Positions 1 through 22,475 are shown, counted from the first letter of the stretch. The stretch is 26,002 bases of DNA from an uncultured bacterium (GCA_964650065.1 CAZYTI010000001.1:1-26002), one strand, 5' to 3'. Program-made: numbers and translations. Notes: generated by a model not told the origin, from the letters alone.

Positions 1-305
1 TATTTAAAGAAGACATGCAGGCATCGGTTCACCTTGAATTAAAACAGAATGCCCCCAATCCGTTTAATCCGCTGACCATGATTCGTTACCAGTTGGGAGA
101 ACCCAGTCGAGTTAGACTGACCGTCTACAACCTATTGGGCCAGGTGGTTCGAAGACTCCTGGACACAGAGCAGGAACAAGGATATCATACCATTCTATGG
201 GACGGTCGGAATGACCGAGGGCAACCCATGGGTACGGGGATCTATTTTTGTTCCTTAGAAACCGACAAACAGGTTTTCACCCAAAAACTTTCATTGATTC
301 GATAA
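1..305 (+). CDS. 3' end of a secreted protein: FlgD Ig-like / T9SS type A-like C-terminal sorting domain (partial, runs off left edge)
   Basis: Frame is open to the window edge (F-K-E-D before the ATG at 15); motif QNAPNPFNP...YNLLGQVVRRL...WDGRNDRGQ...GIYF is typical of this domain. Confidence 0.85.
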   Translation, partial: FKEDMQASVHLELKQNAPNPFNPLTMIRYQLGEPSRVRLTVYNLLGQVVRRLLDTEQEQGYHTILWDGRNDRGQPMGTGIYFCSLETDKQVFTQKLSLIR

Positions 306-331
306 CCACTTTCGGGCATGAAAAGAAGATA

Positions 332-3300
332 ATGATCTGGCTCATTAAAAATATGCGGACACTCCACAAACTGGTCTTGATCAGTATTTCTTTGATCCTG
401 ACACATCCGATTCATGCGGCTTTTCTTAGAAATGTTCCTCAAAAAGTCATCCAACCCGACGGGACAATCTTTAACTGCTTCGCATCAGGAGACGAATTTC
501 ACAACTGGTTACACGATAAAGACGGTTTCACAATCATCCAGGATCCGGTGACCGGATATTACGTATATGCAAAAAAAATAAATCAAAATCTCCATCCCAC
601 TCCATATATTGCAGGGAAGGCGAATCCCACTGTCATGCTCGTTGAACACGGCGTAAATACTGGTCGCCAAACAATTCGGGAGAGAAGGCAAAACTATATC
701 GAGACCTTACGTCTGAATGATAGTTACATGGCACCGACCCATGGCACATTGAATAATATCGTCATCTTTATACGTTTCAACGATCAGGGAGAATTCACCG
801 AACCATTGTCATTTTACGATGGTCAGTTCAATACCGACACCAATTCCATGAAAGGATACTACCAAGAAGCGTCCTATCAGACCCTGAGCATCGAATCCCA
901 ATTCTTTCCGGAATCCTTGAGCGATCAACTCGTGTCCTATCAGGACGCCCATCCCCGGAGCTATTATCGGCCTTACAACGTGGTAACAAATCCCAACGGG
1001 TACCAGAATGATGAGGAATCGAGAATCCGGGAACATACATTGTTGAAAAATGCACTCAATAGTGTTGCTCACCAGATCCCTGCCAATCTCGATCTGGATC
1101 TCGACAATGACGGTCTCGTCGACAACGTGTGTTTTATCATTCAAGGTGAAGCAGAAGGATGGAGTGATTTGCTCTGGCCGCACATGTGGGTTTTGTGGTC
1201 ATTTGATCCTCATTACGGTGATGGCACGGGAAACGTGATGATAAACGGTTCCATCGTATGGACGTATAATTTCAATCTCTCCGCTTTTTCCTCCAGCGGT
1301 CCAGGCGTGTTATGTCATGAAATGTTCCATTCCCTGGGTGCACCCGACTTATACCATTACACCAATAATGGTATATCACCCGTAGGCCCCTGGGACCTGA
1401 TGGAGAACGACCAGGATCCACCCCAGCATATGAGCAGTTACATGAAATACCGATACGGAGGCTGGATCGATAACATACCCGAAATTACAGCCGATGGCGT
1501 TTACAACCTCAGCCCCCTGACATCAGCAACGGGCAACTGCTACAGAATCGCATCCCCCAATTCAGGATCCGAATATTTCGTTGTGGAATACAGGAAAAAA
1601 GAGGGAACGTTCGAATCGAGTCTGCCAGGCTCCGGTCTCCTCGTTTATCGCATCAATACTGCTGAAGATGGTGATGGGAATGCGGATGGCCCTCCCGACG
1701 AAGTATATATCTATCGGCCGGGAGGAACGCCCACACAAAATGGGAACATCTACAATGCAAATTTTTCGTCGACTGTCGGCAGAACTCAAATCAACGATAT
1801 AACGGATCCATCACCATTTCTATCGGATGGCTCTCCCGGGGGATTAACCATTTCCAATATCGGCAGTGCAGGCAGTACCATTCAGTTCACCCTTGGGGGT
1901 TCATATCCTTCAATATCGACCGGTGGAGAACCCTTTTCTCAAACACTCAGTATCGATGAGGCTGACTCCCAGGTCCTCACCATTACAAACACGGGCGATC
2001 CTGGCTCCCTGTTAACCTACACCATTTCGTTCCAATCACCACCCCCAGGCAATAATCTTAGCAAAGCCATGGGGATTGGGGGCTCAACATTCGAAGGCAC
2101 ACCCAGCCTTTACCGACCAGGGACCACCTTTGACATCGTTTTCACAATCACAAACAGCAGTACAGATGAAGAATGGCTGGATGGGTCAAGTCTCAACGTC
2201 CCCTCCGGAGTCACGGTAAACAGCTCGACCCATTTTGTCGGTGGAAGCGGGGGCAATTTGGAAACGAACAATAACACCGGAGAAGGGGTGACTGTGACCT
2301 GGTCCGATGTAAACGGAGGTTTTGGCAATGTATTGGAAGGGGAAAGTGCCGTGGCAACGGTCAACATGACTGTGTCCGGTGGTTTATCGGGAGACATCAA
2401 TTTAGATTGGACGTTGTCTGGAGACAACTATGGAAGCACGCCCCACAATGTTTCCGGATCCGTCACACTGACGCATAGCTGGTTGATACCTTCGTCCGGC
2501 TCGGGCATGTGTGTCTACGGGGAGACCGATGACATTTCTCTGAATTTCAACGCCACCGGCTTTACTGCCGGCAGCTATAACGGAACAGTCATCATTACCC
2601 ACAACAGCGGCGATCCAGTCAATATACCCATCAGTTTAACCGTCACCGATAACACCGTAAAACCACCGCCTTCCTTAATATCCCTCCAATCTGTAAACGA
2701 TACAAACTTGCAGCTTACTTTTTCTGAGGTCGAAGGGGCGACTGCATACAACATCTACAGATCCACCACAGCGTCTTTCATTCCAGACATCATGGATGGA
2801 TCGAACCGTGTAGCCACCGGCATTACCGATGAGGATCCTATATCTGACGGAGTTCAGTGGACCGACCATGAAAATGTCGTGGGCGATCCATCGACGAACT
2901 ATTTTTATACCCTGACGACAGTCGGGTCGAGTGAGAGTGATCCATCCGAAAAGTTCGGAGAGTTCGATTTCGATCTGATCACCACGGGGACCACTGATTT
3001 CAACGAAATCGCCCTGCCCCTAATCACATCTGAGATCACCAATGCCCAGCATCTCATGGAAGCCATCACCGGGTGCAATTCCACGGCTCAGTGGAATTCC
3101 GGCATACAGGGTTACGAGCAGTACATTCCAGGGATACCACCTACCAACTTTACCGTCGAGATGGGATATCCCTATTATGTCAACGTAACCGGCAATACCG
3201 GTTTTACACTCCTGGGGAAGATAGCCACACCCTCATTCAATTTGATCACCACGCCGACAACGGATTTCAATGAAATTGTGCTTCCCCTGACGAAAACGGA

Positions 3301-4132
3301 AATTACCAAAGCATCTCAGCTCATGAACGACATTCCCAACTGTAACAGTGCCGCCTATTGGGATGCCTCAATCCAGGGCTACCAGCAGTATATCCCGGGC
3401 ATACCTCCCACCGATTTTGACGTTCGTGTCGGGTATCCCTACTATGTGAATGTCACGGCCCAGGTCTCCTGGCCCCAGGGTGGAACGCTGAAATACCGGA
3501 ACAGGCCCATTTCCCCCGTTCAGGATGGGGCAGGGATTCGGGCGCCCCATTGTGCCTGGGGACGATTCGATCTAAATGTAAATTTCAACATAGAAGATGT
3601 TCATTTTTCTGCATTCATCACGTCTCGAACCCCAGAAAAACTCACCGAACAATCCCCCGGATGCTCGATACCGGGAGGATACTGGATCGTCCAGTGCAGC
3701 TCATTTCCGTCACCATGGAAAGCCGGAGATACCCTCCATGTTGATGTATTGGACAAGACCGGACGAATTCTCTCGGAAGTCGAAGTCGAACTGTCCTATG
3801 AACCTGCCGATGAGGCGGAATCGGTTCTTGTGAACCCTTCCCCCTTGAGTCCTAACAGTTTCGAGTTGCAACAGAATATGCCCAATCCGTTTAACAGTTC
3901 AACCACACTCTTTTTCACTACAATTGAGGAGTGTCATGTTAGAATCATTGTTTACAACATGAAAGGACAAGAAGTTCGAAGTCTTCTGGACGAAATAAAA
4001 ACCGGCGGTTATCACAGCGTGGTCTGGAATGGGAGGGACAACAATCAGCATGCCGTGGACAGCGGTGTGTATTTCATACAAATGGAAGCGGCACTTTATA
4101 GCGAGAATATAAAAGTATTACTCCTTCAATAG
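332..4132 (+). CDS. Secreted M6-family (immune inhibitor A-like) zinc metalloprotease with Ig-like/FN3 modules, a tandem 89-aa repeat and a C-terminal FlgD-Ig sorting domain
   Basis: Signal peptide after M at 332/353; QPDG...GDEFHNW propeptide; HEMFHSLGAPDLY zinc motif; WDLM Met-turn; EYFVVEYR; C-terminal QNMPNPFN...WNGRD. The ORF-track start at 248 overlaps the upstream gene and is unlikely. Confidence 0.9.
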   Translation: MIWLIKNMRTLHKLVLISISLILTHPIHAAFLRNVPQKVIQPDGTIFNCFASGDEFHNWLHDKDGFTIIQDPVTGYYVYAKKINQNLHPTPYIAGKANPTVMLVEHGVNTGRQTIRERRQNYIETLRLNDSYMAPTHGTLNNIVIFIRFNDQGEFTEPLSFYDGQFNTDTNSMKGYYQEASYQTLSIESQFFPESLSDQLVSYQDAHPRSYYRPYNVVTNPNGYQNDEESRIREHTLLKNALNSVAHQIPANLDLDLDNDGLVDNVCFIIQGEAEGWSDLLWPHMWVLWSFDPHYGDGTGNVMINGSIVWTYNFNLSAFSSSGPGVLCHEMFHSLGAPDLYHYTNNGISPVGPWDLMENDQDPPQHMSSYMKYRYGGWIDNIPEITADGVYNLSPLTSATGNCYRIASPNSGSEYFVVEYRKKEGTFESSLPGSGLLVYRINTAEDGDGNADGPPDEVYIYRPGGTPTQNGNIYNANFSSTVGRTQINDITDPSPFLSDGSPGGLTISNIGSAGSTIQFTLGGSYPSISTGGEPFSQTLSIDEADSQVLTITNTGDPGSLLTYTISFQSPPPGNNLSKAMGIGGSTFEGTPSLYRPGTTFDIVFTITNSSTDEEWLDGSSLNVPSGVTVNSSTHFVGGSGGNLETNNNTGEGVTVTWSDVNGGFGNVLEGESAVATVNMTVSGGLSGDINLDWTLSGDNYGSTPHNVSGSVTLTHSWLIPSSGSGMCVYGETDDISLNFNATGFTAGSYNGTVIITHNSGDPVNIPISLTVTDNTVKPPPSLISLQSVNDTNLQLTFSEVEGATAYNIYRSTTASFIPDIMDGSNRVATGITDEDPISDGVQWTDHENVVGDPSTNYFYTLTTVGSSESDPSEKFGEFDFDLITTGTTDFNEIALPLITSEITNAQHLMEAITGCNSTAQWNSGIQGYEQYIPGIPPTNFTVEMGYPYYVNVTGNTGFTLLGKIATPSFNLITTPTTDFNEIVLPLTKTEITKASQLMNDIPNCNSAAYWDASIQGYQQYIPGIPPTDFDVRVGYPYYVNVTAQVSWPQGGTLKYRNRPISPVQDGAGIRAPHCAWGRFDLNVNFNIEDVHFSAFITSRTPEKLTEQSPGCSIPGGYWIVQCSSFPSPWKAGDTLHVDVLDKTGRILSEVEVELSYEPADEAESVLVNPSPLSPNSFELQQNMPNPFNSSTTLFFTTIEECHVRIIVYNMKGQEVRSLLDEIKTGGYHSVVWNGRDNNQHAVDSGVYFIQMEAALYSENIKVLLLQ
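2969..3457 (+). repeat. Intragenic tandem duplication, 267-bp period (2969-3190 and 3236-3457)
   Basis: FDLITTGTTDFNEIALPL...QGYEQYIPGIPPTNF...GYPYYVNVT versus FNLITTPTTDFNEIVLPL...QGYQQYIPGIPPTDF...GYPYYVNVT. Confidence 0.9.
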
Positions 4133-12438: not shown

Positions 12439-15417
12439 TCACCTGATCATCAACAATTTACCCACATAGGTATTTTCACGGGTTTGCACTTTGACGATAT
12501 ACATCCCCGATGTCACCATATGCCCGGCATCATCGCTCCCATTCCAAGGAACATGATGGCGTCCAGGTTCCAACATCTCATCCACCAATATCCGAATCTG
12601 TTGACCAAGGATATTTTTGATTTCCATGTGAACATGGGATCTTTGGGGTAAATCATAGATAAACATCGTCTGTGAATTAAAAGGATTGGGCGTATTGGGA
12701 TAGACTTTAAATAAAAGGGGCAGTCGCACCTCCTCCACACCGGTTTCTGACCCATTGGATCGTCCCGGGGTTCCCCCCACCTGTTCACTGGCCCGCCAAC
12801 TGCCCGGGAGGACATTATCCTTGGACGCATCGATCAGCTCCAGAGACGGACCGTCGCCATCGGGAGGGGGCGGCCAGGGTGCTGTATCATCATAATTCAC
12901 AGAATCGATCCTGTGGTTTTCGCCATCAAAGAGACACAATGCTTCTCCTTCGTTGGCCAGTTTGCCGCTGGCCGATTGAAACACCTGAAATTCCTGATTG
13001 CGATATGTCGAACTGTTCTTGGCAATGATGATATATTCTCCACCCCTTATGGTCGTCCCGGAGGGAAAGATGAAACCGATTCCCCTGGTGAACCGGTAAT
13101 GGGATAGATCGATATCCGCGTCTCCTCGATTGAAAAGTTCAACAAATTCATAATTGTCATCACTGCCCTGATGAAAGGATGAGGGATTGTAATGGATCTC
13201 ATTGATGACGATGGGAGACAGATCTACCCGTTCAAAAATGGCCTTTACAGAATCAGAGCCTGATAAAATGACGGTGAGCGTATCCGATGAGCCATCCGAG
13301 TATCCCTCCCATCTCATAAATTGACTTCCGTAATCCGGTTTGGCTATTAACCGGACAGGGGCATGTTTAAAATACAGCCCCGTAAATAGACTGTCCCGCA
13401 GATCCATATCACCGATATTCACCCGACCCGATCCGGATCCCGACATACGTACCGTGAGGGTTGTGATGCCCTGAAGAGAGAGGGTCTCATTGATATGCTG
13501 CCGGACAAAATCGGGACGCTCCCTGGCAAAGACCCTCAATATTTCAATTTCCCTCTCCCAGTAGTCCAGATCCGCAATGGCACCCCAACGATCAATATGC
13601 CGCTCCATTTCAGGTTCGATCTGTGCCCTGATCCCATCGATGATATGGATGACCCGCTCCGGATTGAACGTCAGGTTGAGATGGCTGGCGAACCGTTGTG
13701 CAAATGCATGCTTAAATTCGAGATTATCCAATAAACGTGAAAGCAGAATGGATGCCTCACCTTGATTGAGTGCCCATTCCAGGGAATTCGTCCTGTACTG
13801 TTGCTCCCCCTCCCGCGTCTCTCCCCCGAATCCCCAGTCCAAATCGAAGAGCATCCAGCGCCACCTGCCCTGGGGACCCCGCTCCCGCCAGTATTTGGTG
13901 TTCCGGTGCAGCCAGTCATGGTTACGATAATAAATCTCAGCAATCTGGTAATTCATGAATTCATCGACATCCATCTGGGTCTTGACATACGCATAATTAT
14001 CAGGCAGGGCCATATCGTTGGATTTCACAAAATCAATCAAATTCTCAAAATGAGATGGATCGCCTGCACCGACCTCTCCGATATTTTCCAGTAAATCGAC
14101 CTCATTGGGATCGATCCCGTAGTTGCTCTCTGGATAGTGCTCATTCATTTTTTCGCGGATATTGTACAATCCCCAGTATTGACCATTGAGAAACATGATG
14201 GCCGGTTGATAGGCCTGATAATCGACATCCATCTGATCCACGGTTAACTTTTGCATCATGGCATCCCTGAAAAAAGTCATGTTAAAATCATTGCTGGAAC
14301 ACCGCAATATCCATCTTCTGAAGGTATCGATGGACTTGGTGGGAAACATGGGATATCGGACCTGGTGGGTACCGTATTTATCTCTTGTGAATATGGAAAA
14401 AGCCTTTTGGCGTATCTGTCTGCCAAAGGCGCCTCCGAAAATTTTGATGCCTGCATCCATTTTGAATCCCAGATGACCCTCTTGTTCATAGAATTCGTAG
14501 CTTATCGGTCTCTCCCAATCATGCCAAAAATTGGCATGGGGGTCAAAAGGAGGATCGGCTCTGATGGAATCGTTCACACAAATACCTACAGTAATGCCCA
14601 CGGTATCATCAAATAAGAAATCCGGATCCGTGGCAATGGAAATGATGGGTAAGGTCGATGATTCATCGATGAAAAATGTGTGGGTCACGACACGGCTCGG
14701 CAGAAAAGCGGGTGCATCGGCCCTGGCTCGGATCACCGTTGTTTTATCAATTTGAATCGGAATCGTGTATTCATCCGAGGATTGTTTCGGGACTGATCCA
14801 TCTGTTGTGTATCGAATCGATCCATGGGGCGTGCAAGTGAGGGTTACCGATTGTAGACCACTGTAAAATCCTCCCTGTACTGAAAACTCAGGTTCCATCA
14901 CCCTGATCGGCTCATTGACTCCTCGTGTCCCATTCGGTCCGGAAAGGGTGGATTCTACAAAATACATCCACTCCGATTCACCATCGGGATACCGTCCAAA
15001 ACTGATATCGCTCAGTTGACTATTGTAAGTGATAAAATCGATGACCCTGCCATCGGGACGAAAAAGGCCGATTTCTTCGGATGGGCAGTTCAATTTAAAA
15101 TTGGTATGGTTCTCTCGATTCGACCCATCCGCCCAAACAACCAGAAATCCTCTGGGATCGATCACCATTCCCTCGGGAATCCGCCATTTCATCGGCTTAT
15201 TCAAGTTATCGGTCAAGAACAACCCGCCCAGTTGTACAGGAGCGTCTCCTCGATTATAGAGCTCGATCCAGTCCGGGAAATCGGACAAATCGGGAGCCAT
15301 GATCGCATATGAATTCGACGCCATAAACTCATTGATGACGATGGCATCATATTCGTCTGCCATTAAACACGGGACAATCCAGAATACGAATAGCAGACCC
15401 ATTCTTTTTTTTGACAT
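12439..15417 (-). CDS. Secreted CotH kinase family protein with lamin-tail domains, a chitobiase/FN3-associated domain and a C-terminal FlgD-Ig domain
   Basis: Signal peptide; VINEFMA/DWIELYN and VINEIHYNP/EFVELFN (LTD); IRYTTDGSVP; NGQYWGLYNIREK, DWLHRNTK, RWMLFDLDWGF (CotH); NTPNPFN...WNGSD. Confidence 0.9.
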   Translation of the reverse strand: MSKKRMGLLFVFWIVPCLMADEYDAIVINEFMASNSYAIMAPDLSDFPDWIELYNRGDAPVQLGGLFLTDNLNKPMKWRIPEGMVIDPRGFLVVWADGSNRENHTNFKLNCPSEEIGLFRPDGRVIDFITYNSQLSDISFGRYPDGESEWMYFVESTLSGPNGTRGVNEPIRVMEPEFSVQGGFYSGLQSVTLTCTPHGSIRYTTDGSVPKQSSDEYTIPIQIDKTTVIRARADAPAFLPSRVVTHTFFIDESSTLPIISIATDPDFLFDDTVGITVGICVNDSIRADPPFDPHANFWHDWERPISYEFYEQEGHLGFKMDAGIKIFGGAFGRQIRQKAFSIFTRDKYGTHQVRYPMFPTKSIDTFRRWILRCSSNDFNMTFFRDAMMQKLTVDQMDVDYQAYQPAIMFLNGQYWGLYNIREKMNEHYPESNYGIDPNEVDLLENIGEVGAGDPSHFENLIDFVKSNDMALPDNYAYVKTQMDVDEFMNYQIAEIYYRNHDWLHRNTKYWRERGPQGRWRWMLFDLDWGFGGETREGEQQYRTNSLEWALNQGEASILLSRLLDNLEFKHAFAQRFASHLNLTFNPERVIHIIDGIRAQIEPEMERHIDRWGAIADLDYWEREIEILRVFARERPDFVRQHINETLSLQGITTLTVRMSGSGSGRVNIGDMDLRDSLFTGLYFKHAPVRLIAKPDYGSQFMRWEGYSDGSSDTLTVILSGSDSVKAIFERVDLSPIVINEIHYNPSSFHQGSDDNYEFVELFNRGDADIDLSHYRFTRGIGFIFPSGTTIRGGEYIIIAKNSSTYRNQEFQVFQSASGKLANEGEALCLFDGENHRIDSVNYDDTAPWPPPPDGDGPSLELIDASKDNVLPGSWRASEQVGGTPGRSNGSETGVEEVRLPLLFKVYPNTPNPFNSQTMFIYDLPQRSHVHMEIKNILGQQIRILVDEMLEPGRHHVPWNGSDDAGHMVTSGMYIVKVQTRENTYVGKLLMIR

Positions 15418-15621: not shown

Positions 15622-18264
15622 TCATTCGTATTTCAAACTGTCCACCGGATTCGCCTGCGCTGCCCTAAAAGCCTGATAACTCACAGTCAGAAAGGCAATG
15701 CCGAATGCCAATCCACCCGAGAGAATAAAGGTCAATGCACCGATTCCCGTGTGGTATGCAAAATCCCGAAGCCAATACCTCATGGCAAAATAGGAAATCG
15801 GCCACGCGATCAAATTGGCAATCAAAACCCATTTCATGTATGTTTTTGAAAGCAGCACAATAATACCCGAAATGGATGAACCCAGAATCTTCCGAATACC
15901 GATCTCCCTGGTCCGTTGTTCTGCGGTGAAGGCGGCGAGTCCCAGCAATCCCAGGCAACCGATGAATACCGCCAATCCGGCAAAAACCCCAAAGAGTCGC
16001 CCGATTCTTTGCTCGCTCCCATACATCGCATTAAAACGATCATCAAGAAATGAGAATTCAAAAGCATGATTTAGCTCAAAATCCTGCCACGTATTTTTCA
16101 TCCGTCGCACCGTTTCGGATAATTGATCACCCTTTACCCGAAAGGAAATCAGATTGGTGCTCGATGCGAGATGAAGAATGAGGGGCCCTATCCGATCACG
16201 CAATGATTCGAAATGAAAATCCTTGACGACACCGATGACCGGCCAATCGATGAGCCGACGCTCAGGGGGTGCCGTGTAGTCTCCGACGACCTTCCCAATA
16301 GGATGGTTCCAACCAAAATGCTTCACTGCCGCCTCGTTGATAATAATGGCGGATGAGTCCGTTGAAAAACCTCTCGAGAAATTCCTTCCCTCGACAATCT
16401 CCATGCCCAAGGTCTTGATATAATCATAGTCCACCAGCCATCTCTGCATGGGAGTGCCGTTCTCCCGGTATAACCCTTCAGGACAACAAACATCCATCAT
16501 TCTTTCTGAAGTCACAGGCAGGAATCCTGACACTGTTGCACTTTCGATCTCCGGGTACTGAAGGAGTTCGTTCTTGAATGATTCGATCTGCTCTCCCAGA
16601 ACATGGGCATCATGAACGATGACCACCCGTTCTTGATTGAATCCTAAATTCTTATGTTGAATATAATCCAGCTGTTTATCAACGACCACTGTCCCGGTGA
16701 TCAGGGCAATGGATATTGTAAATTGAAAGACCACCAGTGCGCTTCTCAACCGGCGGCTGCTCAAACCTCGAGTGCATGACAGTTTGAGAACTGAAATCGG
16801 CTTAAAAGAACTCAAAAACATGGCCGGGTAGAGTCCTGCTAAAATACCCGGAAAAATAACAATACCGACGAGGGCAACAGGGATTGTTCCGCTTGTTAAG
16901 TCGTTCAACACAAAAACCTTCCCGGCCACTTGATTGAAAGACGGGAGTATGATGGCCACAAATATCAGTGCAAAAATCATGGCCATGAAACTCATTATCG
17001 TCGATTCGGCTAAAAATTGTAATATGAGTTGATGCCGCGTTGATCCCACAACCTTTCGAATCCCCACTTCTCTCGCACGATGAATGGACCGGGCCGTGGA
17101 AAGATTCATGAAATTAATACACGCAAGGACCAGAATGAAAAATGCAATGACAGAAAAAATGATCACATATTTAATATCCCCGTTTGGCTCGAACTCTTCT
17201 TCAAGATTTGAATGTAGATGAATATCCGAAATCGATTGAAGATGATAGTCTATTCGCAATCCGGACTGTAAAAGTTCGTCGAAACTCACCTCTCGAAATT
17301 GTTCCATCATCGGACCGATATATTTGCGAACCATATCGGGAAACTTGTCTTCGAATTGCCGAGGATTCGTTCCCTCTTTGAGCAGGACATAAGTACGGAA
17401 CGCCAGGTTGTTCAACCACCATGGATCACGGCTGTCATCCAGAGTGACAAGGGAAGGGATAAAATTAAAATGGAAATGACTATTACTGGGTATGTCGTGA
17501 AACACGCCGGTGATTTCGTAATCTGTGGTACCATCGAAGGTGAGTATTTGACCCATTGGATCTTCATTCCCGAAGTATTTTTGAGCCGTTTTACCGCTGA
17601 TCACAATCGTGTTAGGCTCCGCAAGAGCTGTCACCGGATCACCCTTCAGGAGAGGAACCGTAAACACATCGAACATATTCGCATCGGCAAAGACGATACG
17701 CGTCTCTTTGAAAGTCTTATCGCGATGCCTGACAAATCGCTCCGATCGTCTCGTCTGTGTGTAGAGTCGTGTGGCCTCTGAGACTTCAGGAAAATCTTTC
17801 ATCAAGGCCCCGGCAGTGGGTGCGGCCAGCGCAGCCACCCGGAACTCGCTATCCCCGATCCTACCCGACAGGGTCAACCGATGGATTCGATCGGCCTTCT
17901 CATGATAACGGTCATAGCTCAGCTCATGCAGGTCGTATAAGAGAATAAACAGGCAGCAGCTGATGCCAATGGCCAGGCCGACAATATTGATCAAAGAATA
18001 ATATCGATGCTTAAAAAGATTTCTCAAAACGATCTTCAAATAATTCCGGAACATGGCCATTCTCCAGTAAATCGAATTCATTAAAAATGATGGCAGCGCC
18101 TTCAGAACCTGATACCAGTACCACAGGTCTGCCCAGCTCTTCCCCTTATCTTCACAGTGAACCCGATAGATCTCATCAAAATCTCCGATGAGAGATTCAT
18201 GGGCCGCTTTACTTCTAAAACAGCAAAGTATCCAACGAGCGATTTTCGGGGATCGTTTCTTCAT
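15622..18264 (-). CDS. MacB/FtsX-like duplicated ABC transporter permease with an N-terminal permease-prefix region
   Basis: ESLIGDFDE...WYWYQ prefix; RNYLKIVLRNL; INFMNLSTARS..RAREVGIRKVVG; EQRTREIGIRKILG; ANPVDSLKYE terminus. Confidence 0.93.
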   Translation of the reverse strand: MKKRSPKIARWILCCFRSKAAHESLIGDFDEIYRVHCEDKGKSWADLWYWYQVLKALPSFLMNSIYWRMAMFRNYLKIVLRNLFKHRYYSLINIVGLAIGISCCLFILLYDLHELSYDRYHEKADRIHRLTLSGRIGDSEFRVAALAAPTAGALMKDFPEVSEATRLYTQTRRSERFVRHRDKTFKETRIVFADANMFDVFTVPLLKGDPVTALAEPNTIVISGKTAQKYFGNEDPMGQILTFDGTTDYEITGVFHDIPSNSHFHFNFIPSLVTLDDSRDPWWLNNLAFRTYVLLKEGTNPRQFEDKFPDMVRKYIGPMMEQFREVSFDELLQSGLRIDYHLQSISDIHLHSNLEEEFEPNGDIKYVIIFSVIAFFILVLACINFMNLSTARSIHRAREVGIRKVVGSTRHQLILQFLAESTIMSFMAMIFALIFVAIILPSFNQVAGKVFVLNDLTSGTIPVALVGIVIFPGILAGLYPAMFLSSFKPISVLKLSCTRGLSSRRLRSALVVFQFTISIALITGTVVVDKQLDYIQHKNLGFNQERVVIVHDAHVLGEQIESFKNELLQYPEIESATVSGFLPVTSERMMDVCCPEGLYRENGTPMQRWLVDYDYIKTLGMEIVEGRNFSRGFSTDSSAIIINEAAVKHFGWNHPIGKVVGDYTAPPERRLIDWPVIGVVKDFHFESLRDRIGPLILHLASSTNLISFRVKGDQLSETVRRMKNTWQDFELNHAFEFSFLDDRFNAMYGSEQRIGRLFGVFAGLAVFIGCLGLLGLAAFTAEQRTREIGIRKILGSSISGIIVLLSKTYMKWVLIANLIAWPISYFAMRYWLRDFAYHTGIGALTFILSGGLAFGIAFLTVSYQAFRAAQANPVDSLKYE

Positions 18265-18355
18265 ATGTTTCTATCTTAAAGTATTAAATTCATTTTTTTG
18301 CGAATTGTGGTTTTGGTTGCTTGACCTTGGTCATTTGATATTTATTTGATATTTG

Positions 18356-18408
18356 CCTGCCCGCCAGTTGAATTAATTATGAAAAATTAGGGAAACTTGG
18401 CAGGCGGG
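18356..18408. repeat. CCTGCCCGCC-N33-GGCAGGCGGG element, copy 2
   Basis: Arms at 18356-18365 and 18399-18408; flanks TTGGTCATT...TATTTG and ATTTGTAATTT shared with copy 1. Confidence 0.8.
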
Positions 18409-18461
18409 GGATTTGTAATTTGTGATTTAAAACAATGAACGAATAACCGGAAAATAATTGA

Positions 18462-18797
18462 TTAGACACGCTTGTATTTCTTGTAATGTCCCAACAGTTC
18501 ATTAAATCCCTCCATGATTGTATCATGGATCTCCTTCGATTTGATAAGTTTTTCAACACCTGCATCTGTTATTTCGTAATACTTCTTTCTCATCCCGCCT
18601 CTCGTGGGTGTTGGATCGCCCATGGTTGTTACCAGGTATCCCTTCATCCGTAACCTTTCCAGGATATCGTAAACAACACCCAGTGTGATGCGTTTCTCGT
18701 TCATCTTTTCAAGATATCGAAAAACATTCACGCCGTACCCCTCTCCCTGAAAACGCCAGACGGTCATGAGTATCTGTTCTTCCATTTTTGTGAGCAT
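18462..18797 (-). CDS. PadR family transcriptional regulator
   Basis: MLTKMEEQILM..GYGV..LGVVYDILERL..KGY..RGGMRKKYYEIT..G; AGGAG RBS before the ATG at 18797. Confidence 0.9.
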   Translation of the reverse strand: MLTKMEEQILMTVWRFQGEGYGVNVFRYLEKMNEKRITLGVVYDILERLRMKGYLVTTMGDPTPTRGGMRKKYYEITDAGVEKLIKSKEIHDTIMEGFNELLGHYKKYKRV

Positions 18798-18913
18798 GGT
18801 CTCTCCTGTTGGTTTGTTCCATGGGTCATGATTTATTCGTGATTCACGAAGGTATACGGGATAAAACACTTTAAAGTTTCGTGTTTTACGAAAGAATGGA
18901 ATCTTTAACTGAT

Positions 18914-19046: not shown

Positions 19047-19358
19047 ATGAGTAAGGGTGAATTGGAGGATGAATTTCTAAATGCCTCCCGATACCGTCTA
19101 TCCATTCCCAGGGATACCAAAGGCTTCCTGCACTCCAATTACGATTTCATCGTGAAAGTAGAAGACAAATCCGGTGTGATTACATCCATTTCCACTGCCC
19201 TTTCCCGGGCAGACATCAATATCAAAGATATCGAGATACTCAAGGTCAGAGTAGGTGATGCAGGCACCCTGCGTCTCTCATTGGAATCGGAAGATCTTCG
19301 GAAACAGGTCCGGGTTATTCTCGATGAAATCGGATACCAATACAGAATAAAGAACTAA
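19047..19358 (+). pseudogene. ACT-domain fragment resembling the C-terminus of prephenate dehydrogenase (TyrA-ACT); 5'-truncated gene or stand-alone ACT protein
   Basis: R..IP...KG.L...YD..V.VEDKSGVI..I...L....INIKDIEILKVR.G..GTLRL pattern; in-frame stop immediately before the ATG; no dehydrogenase domain upstream. Confidence 0.65.
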
Positions 19359-19386: not shown

Positions 19387-19422
19387 AAATGAAAAGGGCT
19401 CGATGATGAGCCCTTTTCATTT
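19387..19422. terminator. Bidirectional intrinsic terminator
   Basis: AAATGAAAAGGGCTC-GATGAT-GAGCCCTTTTCATTT, a 15-bp stem between convergent genes. Confidence 0.85.
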
Positions 19423-19444: not shown

Positions 19445-20722
19445 TTATTTATTATTCATTTCTTTCTGAATTAATTCCAAATGCTCTCGAGCATCCTCAT
19501 TCTCAGGATCAAGCTCTACAGCTCTGTTAACGGCAACCAAAGCATTTTGATAATTCTTCATCTTCCGGTGAACGGCAGCCAGGACATTCCACGTCCGTGC
19601 ATCTGGTTTCAACTCTACGACCTTTTTGGCCGATTGCAGGGCACTCTCGAGATTTTGCTCTTTATCTGCCCAGAACCGGGCATACCTGGTCAATAGATTG
19701 GCATCTTCCATATTCTTTAGGATGTACGCCGTCCCATAAGCCTCAAGAGCCTCACTTTTTTTATTATTCTTCAGGAACAAATTAGCCGCATTCTGACGAT
19801 AACCACCAGATTCGGGAGCCAGTTTGATGAGCTTCTTGGCGTACCGTTCCCCTTCATCAAGATTTTTACCGGTTTTAATATAATACCGAACAATATTGTT
19901 TAAAATCGAAGGATTCTCCGGATACATCTTTTTGAGGTCTGCATAAAAGGCGTCGCTTTTTTTAGATACCGGCAGCCTTAAATAAAAGTTAGCGAGATCC
20001 GAATAGACCCCGTCGATCAAAGCACTCTTGGGAAATTCGGCCCGAAACGCTTCTAGCCCCTTTGTAGATCGCTTGGAGTACATATCGCCATACCCCGCCG
20101 AATAGTTCGCAGCCTCGTAAAGATTAATCGCTTTCGCTTGGAACGTGACATCAATGGTTTTTGCTTCATCCGCACGTTCGAGCACTTTCTGACTCATCGC
20201 AGCGGCCTTCTCCATCTGGTACATTTGAGAATGCTTATTCGCTAGAGCGAACATCTTTTCAAGATTATCTGGATCTTGATCGTGCTGCGCTTTTATCGAA
20301 GCATAGGTATCGATGCCCTTCAGGGATCCCTTTACTCTTTCAAAATAGTTATCAGGATCTCTTTTATAACCTGCAATGATATCAGACAAGGAACCATCGG
20401 GCTTTACAATAGCCACTGAGGGATGGCCTCCGATCTCGAATTTCTCCTCAATCTCTTCTCCATTCCCTTCACCCGGAATGGCATGAATGGGAACGAAATT
20501 TTCATGGATAAACTGAACGTATTTGTCGTTTCCGAAAAATTGCTGACCCAGCAATACACACGAGCCTCAGGTGCGGGACCATGCAAAGATGAGCACATCC
20601 TTTTCGGCATTCTCCGCTTCGACCATGGCCTCATCAAGTGAGCCCGTAAACCACTGTGTCCCCTGTCCGAAGACTGAGGAAACAAAAAGCAGAAGTAGTG
20701 AAACTAAAATCCATTTTTTCAT
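19445..20722 (-). CDS. Secreted thioredoxin-fold + TPR protein, predicted selenoprotein (425 aa, Sec at codon 52, UxxC motif)
   Basis: GGAGG RBS and ATG at 20722; signal peptide MKKWILVSLLLLFVSSVFG; W..SLDEAM..A....K.VLI.AWSRT-[TGA 20569-20567]-GSC; same frame as the 369-aa track ORF; SECIS-like hairpin; C-terminal TPR repeats. Confidence 0.85.
20539..20555 (-). promoter_or_regulatory. Bacterial SECIS-like hairpin
   Basis: mRNA UGA-GGCUCGUGUGU-AUUGCUG-GGU-CAGCAAU: 7-bp stem with a GGU loop at +19 to +21 after the UGA. Confidence 0.75.
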
Positions 20723-20808
20723 GACTGCCTCCAAAATTTAATGAGTTGAGTTATAATATACTAAAATGGTAGGGATTATCCAAAATAATTATTTTATGAA
20801 ACATTTCA

Positions 20809-21168
20809 ATGTGGTTCTCTGTACAAATAAAAGAATGTTCAAGACCATCATTGAAGAGAGGTACACATGAGGAAGAACCACTTCACTTTCCACAAAAAAA
20901 TCTGGATATGATCATTATGGTCTATGTCCTCCATCACCTCGACAAACCAATAAAATTTCTTGAAAATTTAAAACCGTATCTAAAACCTGACGCCCCATTG
21001 GTGATCATTGAACAAAATACAAACAGGGAGAGGGCTCATCCTCCCTCTTTCATGACGAAAAAGCAGATCTTAGAAACCATAGATAATACAGCCTTTGAAC
21101 TTTTAAGGACAGAGACTTTCTTACCTCGAGACACCATCTATATCTATAAATTAAAAACCACCTCTTAA
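20809..21168 (+). pseudogene. C-terminal half of a class I SAM-dependent methyltransferase (5'-truncated)
   Basis: EEPLHFPQKNLDMIIMVYVLHHLDKP..FL..LK..LKP...LVIIE; the N-terminal glycine-rich SAM-binding motif is absent. Confidence 0.7.
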
Positions 21169-21364: not shown

Positions 21365-21604
21365 TCATTCATTAATATGATCCCACCCTTTACATCCATG
21401 ACCCGCTGCTCTTTTTTTCTCGTTTCGTTTGGGATATCCTCTACAGACATCTGGTCGTAATTCATAGATTCTACATTTGTACTTTTCTCTATTTGGTAGT
21501 TTCCTTATAATAGGTTCTGCAGCAAGTCCCACATTGTTTACAGATAAATCCAGTTGGATGCTTGAAAGAGGTTTTACTTTTATTTTTTTTATTTTGTTCA
21601 ACAA
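21365..21604 (-). pseudogene. Fragment of a YkgJ family cysteine-cluster (CxxCxxCC, UPF0153) protein
   Basis: C-terminal motif CRIYELRPDVCRGYP present; N-terminal CxxCxxCC absent. Confidence 0.6.
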
Positions 21605-21789: not shown

Positions 21790-22191
21790 CTACAGATACT
21801 TACTAATAAATGCCTTCGGGGTAATAATTTCTATTCCCTTGTATCCGGTTATTTTCAATAAATGTTTATCGCCAGTAACAATTATTTTGGAATTACTGGA
21901 TAAAGCGCATGAAATAAATTTTTCATCATCAGGGTCAGCACATATGTTTTGGGAAAATATTATTGGTTGGAAGAATTCAGCATTGATAGCTATTAAATCT
22001 AGGATGTCACGAATATCAATTGATTTAAATTGCCAGGAAAGTCTTTCTGCCACTCTGCGATACTCATCGAATATTTCTTTTGATAGTATCAATTTAAATC
22101 TTCCATCTCTCCAACTTTGTAGTATTTGATAAGGCGGGCCAGTAAAGAAGATTCCAGAAATTAATACATTTGTATCAATAATTATTTTCAA
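21790..22191 (-). CDS. PIN-domain toxin (VapC-like, PIN family putative TA toxin)
   Basis: IIIDTNVLISG, DPDDEKFISCAL, IVTGDKHLL; TTG start overlapping the antitoxin TGA. Confidence 0.92.
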   Translation of the reverse strand: MKIIIDTNVLISGIFFTGPPYQILQSWRDGRFKLILSKEIFDEYRRVAERLSWQFKSIDIRDILDLIAINAEFFQPIIFSQNICADPDDEKFISCALSSNSKIIVTGDKHLLKITGYKGIEIITPKAFISKYL

Positions 22192-22451
22192 TGTTTGTCC
22201 CGAACTTTCGAAATTGCGGAAGAGATATCAGATTTCTTTAGACCGGCCACTTTAGCTTGTTTGCGAGCCCTCTTTATTAGACCATCAAATTCAGCAATAG
22301 ATGGTGGGGATATTGTCTTTAATATTACGACATCCTTTTCTCCAATAACTAAAAACTTTGAACCTGATTCCAATCCGAGTTTATTACGAATTTCTTCAGG
22401 TATAACTATCTGGCCTTTTGATGACATTTTAGTTGTCGATACAGTTGACAT
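22188..22451 (-). CDS. AbrB/MazE/SpoVT family antitoxin
   Basis: TKMSSKGQIVIPEEIRNKLGL..G motif; GAGGAAG RBS before the ATG at 22451. Confidence 0.92.
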   Translation of the reverse strand: MSTVSTTKMSSKGQIVIPEEIRNKLGLESGSKFLVIGEKDVVILKTISPPSIAEFDGLIKRARKQAKVAGLKKSDISSAISKVRDKH

Positions 22452-22475
22452 GATGACCTTCCTCAATATGATTGT

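Follow-up and report, generated by a model that had tools for sequence, protein, structure and literature searches.

This locus raises the question of whether an in-frame TGA ends a gene or is read through as selenocysteine (Sec, U). The locus lies in a stretch of 26,002 nucleotides (nt) from an uncultured bacterium (GCA_964650065.1 CAZYTI010000001.1:1-26002), referred to here at its full length as the window, and consists of a minus-strand frame (20722..19445) that, as read from the window sequence, comprises 425 sense codons from ATG to TAA with one TGA as its sole interruption. In the list of open reading frames (ORFs), the gene is split into an ORF of 369 amino acids (aa) starting at a TTG (20554) and a separate 55-aa ORF ending at the TGA. 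A first-pass annotation had noted that the frame continues 56 codons upstream of this TTG to an ATG with a GGAGG ribosome-binding site (RBS), and that it is interrupted only by the TGA at 20569-20567 within WSRT-U-GSC. Both points were confirmed by direct reading, and the original observation, at the level of the sequence, is confirmed. The surrounding residues are DVLIFAWSRT-U-GSCVLLGQQFFGNDK, with FAWSRT-U-GSC-VLL as the immediate context.

It is considered highly probable that the gene encodes a single 425-aa exported protein in which a thioredoxin (Trx) domain is followed by tetratricopeptide repeats (TPR), that UGA52 is decoded as Sec by means of a selenocysteine insertion sequence (SECIS), and that the product serves as a thiol-disulfide oxidoreductase of the cell envelope. 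This reading is supported because the UGA is conserved, aligned homologues carry cysteine (Cys) at this position, and a covarying SECIS-like hairpin is present that is missing from the Cys forms. The same grounds support what the first-pass annotation had put forward, namely, an exported UxxC selenoprotein of the Trx fold that is fused to TPR and mis-annotated as truncated.

The three closest homologues, which stem from three unrelated sequencing runs and have 60, 55, and 48% identity to the window protein, are each annotated as an ORF of 51-54 aa, a 12-nt gap, and an ORF of ~370 aa; when read through, they show the same in-frame TGA, with the protein conserved on either side. A homologue scan that took one genome per species gave 22 related loci. 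A TGA occupies the aligned codon in the 14 closer ones, which belong to Aminicenantes, Ignavibacteria/Ignavibacteriales, Bacteroidota, Neomarinimicrobiota, and unclassified metagenome-assembled genomes, and the eight most distant ones (L018-L025; Nannocystaceae, Planctomycetota, Halieaceae, and Steroidobacteraceae) encode W-C-x-x-C. In Aminicenantes, tandem paralogues occur (three copies in L005, two in L011, four in L012, and two in L014), every one of them with the TGA. Two members of a large 'LLD(E/Q)QFF' subfamily were also checked in DNA, and both contain the TGA. In total, the aligned codon is TGA in 27 of 27 Sec-type gene copies from at least five lineages and TGC in 9 of 9 Cys-type relatives, the latter being L018-L025 and P0030/L033 (G-C-Q-G-C), so that the comparison at position 52 proposed in the first-pass annotation returned TGA or Cys throughout.

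An exhaustive profile search showed the family to be large; from its matches, the 150 top-ranking representatives of clusters at 50% identity were evaluated. These include 44 generic giant TPR proteins, ~45 proteins that begin exactly after U-x-x-C-x, and 62 that begin later or are fragmentary; an intact CxxC was found only in P0030. Among these cluster representatives, Sec forms thus outnumber Cys forms by ~45 to 1, and such an excess is unusual for bacterial selenoprotein families. The same TTG-type mis-call is present in every database entry examined for the Trx-TPR family, which, on comparative grounds, is almost wholly of the predicted Sec type and systematically mis-annotated as an ORF of 51-55 aa plus a 'TPR protein' of ~370 aa. 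Other searches contributed less: the N-terminal Trx domain by itself, with C in place of U, retrieved no homologues, with a word index yielding 12 candidates only; the full-length protein retrieved four true orthologues, after which generic TPR proteins dominate; and a scan of metagenome contigs with the family alignment gave one partial locus.

The second line of evidence is a hairpin just downstream of the UGA. A perfectly paired hairpin with at least 6 bp (6-7 bp) and a G-containing apical loop begins 10-11 nt past the UGA in 27 of 27 Sec copies (11 sequence variants) and in none of the 9 Cys copies; it is missing even from the Cys form P0030, whose peptide at this place (DLLSRQFF) is similar. 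Covariation was assessed in an alignment of 18 sequences, 16 of them from the main family. All seven pairs are retained in 16 of 16 main-family sequences, and two-sided compensatory changes occur at three pairs: A-U to G-C or U-A, U-A to C-G (seven sequences), and G-C to C-G (three sequences). None of 500 shuffles reached the observed covariation score, and the hairpin register is 90.5% paired, versus 17-62% for slid registers. In the change from U-A to C-G, both substitutions (TTG to CTG and CAA to CAG) are synonymous. Synonymous sites are frozen as well: among five orthologues, 4 of the 5 conserved-residue codons within the hairpin are codon-identical versus 7 of 106 elsewhere in the gene (Fisher p = 2.6e-4). 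The most divergent Sec forms, L016 and L017, encode a different peptide (RLDAETL), yet the hairpin is retained in both, with 6 bp, a UGGAU loop, and a one-nucleotide shift; between the two, one pair has changed from G-C to A-U in a compensatory manner.

In the window, the 60 nt past the UGA fold at -11.1 kcal/mol. Bacterial SECIS elements are described as having a loop of 3-9 nt, a stem of at least 4 bp, a G in the first two loop positions, and a UGA-to-loop distance of 16-37 nt (PMC13188914), and the window hairpin lies within all of these limits, with a UGA-to-loop distance of 18 nt. Compared with the bacterial SECIS consensus (bSECISearch model; E. coli fdhF type), the family hairpin is alike in being located within the ORF just past the UGA and in having an apical loop of 3-5 nt that begins with G followed by G, U, or A. 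It is unlike the consensus in that its stem is very short and simple, without a bulged U, and in that the stem sequence is bound to encode L-L-x-Q/E-Q.

The protein domains are consistent with decoding across the UGA. With U replaced by C, Pfam Thioredoxin_7 matches residues 25-108, i.e., across the TGA, with 34.1 bits (cut-off 27; E 3e-8), and residues 375-408 match TPR_1 (39.9 bits; cut-off 27.8) and TPR_2 (33.3 bits; cut-off 27). By profile comparison, the nearest solved structure of the N-terminal domain is PDB 2kuc_A, a 'putative disulphide-isomerase' (E 1.2e-9), in which W-C-G-P-C aligns with T-U-G-S-C. The Sec would hence be located on the first, attacking Cys, which bears out the earlier claim that the TGA falls where the first Cys of a thioredoxin CxxC is expected. 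The N-terminus, MKKWILVSLLLLFVSSVFG/QG, has a positive n-region, a hydrophobic core, and small residues before the predicted cut, so that the signal peptide suggested earlier holds up on inspection; among the orthologues, some have a signal of the signal-peptidase-I type, and in others, lipoprotein-type boxes are found instead (L002, LALAAC; L016, LLFSC; L017, FIAC).

As a stand-in for the window protein, an AF2 model was made for P0030, a full-length Cys-form member of the family (predicted local distance difference test score, pLDDT, 90.5; predicted template modelling score, pTM, 0.81). The model has one continuous Trx fold in the order beta-alpha-beta-alpha-beta-beta-alpha, in which CQGC (55-58) opens helix alpha1 (56-66). 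A low-confidence, signal-like N-terminal helix (6-22) is detached from the fold, and from residue 143 to the C-terminus the model is helical and TPR-like, with a single beta-hairpin insertion. Its Foldseek matches are TPR superhelices, e.g., OGT, SPY, and the periplasmic adaptor LbcA. Because a single Trx fold spans the junction in this model, a stop at the TGA would halve one domain.

Taken as a mechanism, the UGA at codon 52 would not act as a stop, and 20722..19445 would be read through as a single gene. The 7-bp hairpin with its GGU loop in the coding sequence would act as a bacterial SECIS and, judging from its anatomy and from the comparison above, recruit SelB with Sec-tRNA(Sec), leading to the insertion of Sec. 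The protein would then be exported through the general secretory (Sec) translocon, with some orthologues lipid-anchored; the U-x-x-C pair would cycle between the selenol/thiol and selenenylsulfide states, as a reductase or isomerase, and the TPR solenoid may bind a client polypeptide or partner. The outcome would be an envelope counterpart of the Trx-TPR 'chaperedoxins'.

Several points weigh against this interpretation. Neither the window nor the ~10 kb of flank, which together make up the ~36 kb examined (window plus L026/L029) of the 207-kb contig Ga0120401_1000043 to which the window belongs, yielded selA, selB, selD, or a tRNA-Sec; likewise, no tRNAs were found in the window or in loci L001-L017, and literature on Sec use in Aminicenantes or Marinimicrobia was little informative. 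No Rfam SECIS match was obtained for the whole window at gathering thresholds or for 20450-20640 at E<=10, the only matches in the SECIS region at E<=10 being chance snoRNA ones. This is unsurprising because the element is so small, and bacterial SECIS elements are poorly represented among Rfam-type models. The covariation from U-A to C-G could partly track genomic G+C content; the change from G-C to C-G is not explained by composition, because there a synonymous Leu change is coupled to a Gln-to-Glu replacement. The export signal was assessed by eye, the redox/chaperone function is derived from domains only, no gene neighbourhood is conserved across lineages, and no redox partner was found.

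As to function, the favoured interpretation is a protein-disulfide reductase or isomerase of the envelope that carries its own client-binding module, because a predicted exported U-x-x-C Trx_7 domain, a TPR solenoid, and neighbours related to envelope folding or redox processes occur together. With regard to these neighbours, a tandem-FKBP prolyl isomerase gene immediately precedes the Trx-TPR gene in L016 (1656-2165) and L017 (2295-3128), where both have the same orientation, and the FKBP and Trx-TPR pair may form an envelope-folding operon at these two loci. A TlpA/Redoxin-domain protein is encoded after L007 and a BamD/YfiO-like lipoprotein after L004. In L030 (2993-3750), an AhpC/TSA-Redoxin gene and a small DUF1858 gene adjoin a family member of the 'LLDEQFF' type; DUF1858 is listed as a family with selenoprotein members (PMC13188914, Table 1).

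Of the alternatives, the one that survives best, albeit as an unlikely one, retains the selenoprotein and assigns it a narrower job on a single client class, e.g., the reduction of CxxCH in apocytochrome c after the manner of CcmH/CcmI or ResA, with the TPR domain binding the apocytochrome. The combination of a thiol reductase and a TPR chaperone parallels CcmH/CcmI, and the C-terminal repeats weakly match TPR_CcmH_CycH, as do those of P0001-P0003 in precomputed matches; at 25.7 bits versus a cut-off of 42, however, the match is sub-threshold, and it is a generic TPR match. Moreover, no ccsBA, ccdA, or ccm gene is located next to the gene at any locus, and the presence of two to four diverged paralogues per array in Aminicenantes suggests several clients rather than one housekeeping substrate. 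These paralogues are arranged head to tail (L012:600-7404, L005:4400-9145, L011:1600-5043, and L014:4100-7400), each with its own SECIS hairpin, and the arrays suggest a diversified client specificity.

Clearly less probable, and indeed very unlikely, is a selenoprotein whose U-x-x-C, instead of catalysing disulfide exchange on proteins, serves in the envelope to bind or detoxify metals or metalloids (Hg, As, Cu, or selenite). Several of the catalogued UxxC bacterial selenoproteins are metal-related (PMC13188914, Table 1), but the domain has a canonical Trx_7 fold, its nearest match being a putative disulfide isomerase, and no metal-resistance genes are adjacent. To about the same low degree, it is conceivable that the UGA is recoded via SelB and the SECIS with Cys, by a selC*-type tRNA, so that an ordinary CxxC oxidoreductase is made in an unusual way. 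The evidence from the UGA and the SECIS fits this account equally well. To our knowledge, however, tRNA(Sec)-like Cys tRNAs of this type are rare and confined to few lineages, which counts against it. Furthermore, the UGA is retained in all 27 copies across at least five phylum-level lineages, although a change from TGA to TGC or TGT would suffice for Cys (cf. P0030 and L018-L025). Because the UGA is kept although a one-base change would give Cys, selection for Sec itself is indicated.

That the TGA is a real stop, arising from a nonsense mutation or a sequencing error or separating two genes, one for a secreted peptide of 51 aa and one for a cytoplasmic TPR protein, is hardly credible. It is how all gene callers annotated the gene, but the TTG downstream of the TGA is part of the hairpin and lacks its own RBS, the protein encoded by the 51 codons before the TGA is conserved, a stop would split the Trx fold, and neither the frozen synonymous sites nor the covarying hairpin agrees with a stop. 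The identical gene and TGA were assembled independently in the JGI metagenomes 3300009431, 3300009314, and 3300009128, and a read error is ruled out because all three assemblies carry the TGA; together with the 27 TGA copies, they rule out a sequencing error or pseudogene. Weakest of all, and of negligible probability, is a genetic code in which UGA stands for Trp or Gly throughout the genome. Nothing speaks for it but the in-frame TGA itself, and the stop-codon usage of the window refutes it: 9 of the 19 confident window genes have TGA as their ordinary stop, and none of the 19 has another internal stop, so that the genetic code is standard. In addition, the homologues have Cys rather than Trp or Gly at this position. 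A search for further selenoprotein genes among 18 TGA-joined ORF pairs in the window gave no credible candidate.

If the preferred reading, an exported Trx-TPR selenoprotein, is placed among known families, the closest in domain type are the PF13899 proteins such as 2kuc, with which the N-terminal domain, the active site (residue for residue), and the context of an N-terminal export signal are shared. Unlike the 130-aa 2kuc, the window protein has a predicted Sec for the first Cys and a solenoid of ~300 TPR residues, and it has another residue in place of the Trp that precedes the active site (T-U-G-S-C). Catalogued Trx-fold UxxC selenoproteins include the 'Thiol:disulfide interchange protein' (PF13098), DsbA-like, DsbG-like, and TlpA-type UGC proteins (PMC13188914, Table 1). 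The window protein resembles these as a putative envelope oxidoreductase with Sec as the attacking residue, an in-ORF SECIS, and Cys homologues; none of them, however, is fused to TPR, and PF13098 scores 22.7 bits on the window protein versus a cut-off of 27. The Trx7/PDZ selenoprotein (NF041199) also has a Thioredoxin_7-type domain joined to a protein-binding module, but its motif is CxxU, with Sec second, and its partner is PDZ, whereas the window protein has UxxC and no PDZ in Pfam; the NF041199 model does not match the window protein at E<=0.1.

The first-pass annotation had also pointed to the UGSC family. The spelling of the motif is indeed present in the window, but homology is not borne out: the model NF041046 does not match the window protein at E<=0.1, and an exact UGSC occurs in only 6 of the 27 Sec copies, the others having UGGC, UGAC, UPGC, UPSC, or UGPC (consensus U-[G/P]-x-C). 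For these reasons, the likeness is regarded as coincidental, and membership of the UGSC family was rejected. The best NCBIfam selenoprotein models score insignificantly (TsoB, 16 bits versus 805; VPGUxxT type 2, 14.8 versus 275).

In architecture only, the window protein resembles the CnoX/YbbN chaperedoxins, in which an N-terminal Trx fold is followed by a TPR domain (PMC10998233, PMC8129009); in CnoX, the combination couples redox protection with holdase activity (PMC10998233, PMC8129009). CnoX is cytoplasmic, acts with GroEL/DnaK, and has SxxC or CxxC, whereas the window family is of the Trx_7 type and predicted to be exported and to contain Sec. No CnoX/YbbN structure was found among the PDB sequence matches of the Trx domain or among the top 50 fold matches, and no homology to CnoX is detectable; the likeness concerns a possible mode of action rather than family membership.

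A review of the prokaryotic selenoproteome from May 2026 tabulates 119 families (PMC13188914). Its text contains no PF13899, 'TPR', or 'tetratricopeptide', and the entries that come nearest are the 'Thiol:disulfide interchange protein' of PF13098 (UxxC) and 'Trx7/PDZ' (CxxU) (PMC13188914). There is no corresponding family in NCBIfam either, so that the comparison with selenoprotein collections of hidden Markov models (HMMs), suggested earlier as a check of novelty, points to a family that is new in this respect. It appears to be a new, uncatalogued family within a well-known kind, i.e., Trx-fold UxxC selenoproteins with an in-ORF SECIS, and because it is missing from both the 119-family catalogue and NCBIfam, it is invisible in essentially all annotations. 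The further-reaching view is given an even chance: a widespread, near-obligate Sec family, exported or lipid-anchored, uncatalogued, and present in arrays of up to four copies, which may constitute a periplasmic 'seleno-chaperedoxin', with client binding by the TPR solenoid coupled to selenium-based disulfide chemistry.

The mechanism as such is conventional, since UxxC Trx-fold selenoproteins with an in-ORF SECIS are already known. What goes beyond a routine addition is the excess of Sec over Cys forms, the predicted export, which would place selenium chemistry in the cell envelope, and the fusion of the catalytic domain to a long, putatively client-binding TPR solenoid that is expanded in tandem paralogue arrays. 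The split annotation hides what is probably a need for selenium in several uncultured phyla that are abundant in sediments and waters, and a dedicated HMM would correct many annotations. In addition, a natural 17-nt candidate SECIS with 11 variants and matched Cys-form negative controls may be useful for training predictors of SECIS elements and selenoproteins.

The features of the gene and its immediate borders are listed in the table below.

Features of the Trx-TPR gene and its borders, with positions in the window
Feature	Position	Strand	Basis or remark
Shine-Dalgarno GGAGG	20728..20732	-	Direct read; 5-nt spacer before ATG
True start codon ATG	20720..20722	-	Orthologues use the equivalent ATG
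Predicted signal peptide, residues 1-19, MKKWILVSLLLLFVSSVFG	20666..20722	-	Sequence inspection
Thioredoxin_7 domain, residues 25-108 (fold to ~128)	20399..20650	-	Pfam PF13899
In-frame TGA, codon 52, predicted selenocysteine codon	20567..20569	-	Comparative evidence
Putative redox motif U-G-S-C, Sec52-Gly-Ser-Cys55	20558..20569	-	Family consensus U-[G/P]-x-C
Candidate SECIS hairpin AUUGCUG-GGU-CAGCAAU	20539..20555	-	7 bp, 3-nt loop, 11 nt past UGA
TTG mis-called as start, Leu57, within the SECIS stem	20552..20554	-	ORF list
All-alpha TPR-like solenoid, residues ~130-425	19448..20335	-	Pfam, P0030 model, and Foldseek
Last repeat, the only canonical-scoring TPR, residues 375-408	19499-19600	-	Pfam
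True stop codon TAA	19445..19447	-	Direct read
Intrinsic terminator-like hairpin and T-run	19387..19422	-	23 nt past TAA; consensus scan only

At the 5' end of the gene, the orthologous loci L001-L003 have GGAGG or GGGAGG at the position equivalent to the Shine-Dalgarno sequence. At the 3' end, the terminator-like hairpin comprises 15 pairs, six of them G-C, followed by ATTTAT. It lies between the Trx-TPR gene and a convergent plus-strand ORF (19047-19358) that encodes a stand-alone ACT-domain protein of 103 aa and shares the hairpin. Directly upstream of the Trx-TPR gene and divergent from it is a plus-strand ORF of 119 aa (20809-21168), which matches only the C-terminal part of S-adenosylmethionine (SAM)-methyltransferase models (Methyltransf_23 positions 66-125 of 164) and looks like a truncated gene or remnant.

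Further upstream, on the minus strand, a small Cys-rich ORF (21365-21604; KQCGTCC... and ...DVCRGYP...) has no Pfam match at 1e-5; it ends in a TGA followed by 104 in-frame codons that are not coding-like, and this TGA was taken as an ordinary stop. Beyond it are a PIN_3-domain toxin gene and a MazE/AbrB-type antitoxin gene with a 4-nt overlap (21790-22466, minus strand), a typical type II toxin-antitoxin pair. On the other side of the Trx-TPR gene, a PadR-family regulator and then an 880-aa MacB/FtsX-type permease are encoded at 15622-18869 (minus strand), and a second MacB-type permease is encoded in the right flank (L026:1-2127). Several very large secreted proteins with a FlgD_ig-like C-terminal domain are encoded at 248-4132 (plus strand) and 12439-15417 (minus strand) in the window and in the left flank (L029:2766-9859); among them are a protein of 1294 aa and a CotH kinase that has lamin-tail domains, while the left flank contributes two. 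Their shared C-terminal domain may direct them, as a sorting tag, to a dedicated secretion system. Just past the right end of the window, a gene of the '23S rRNA intervening sequence protein' family (PF05635) is located at L026:3698-4090.

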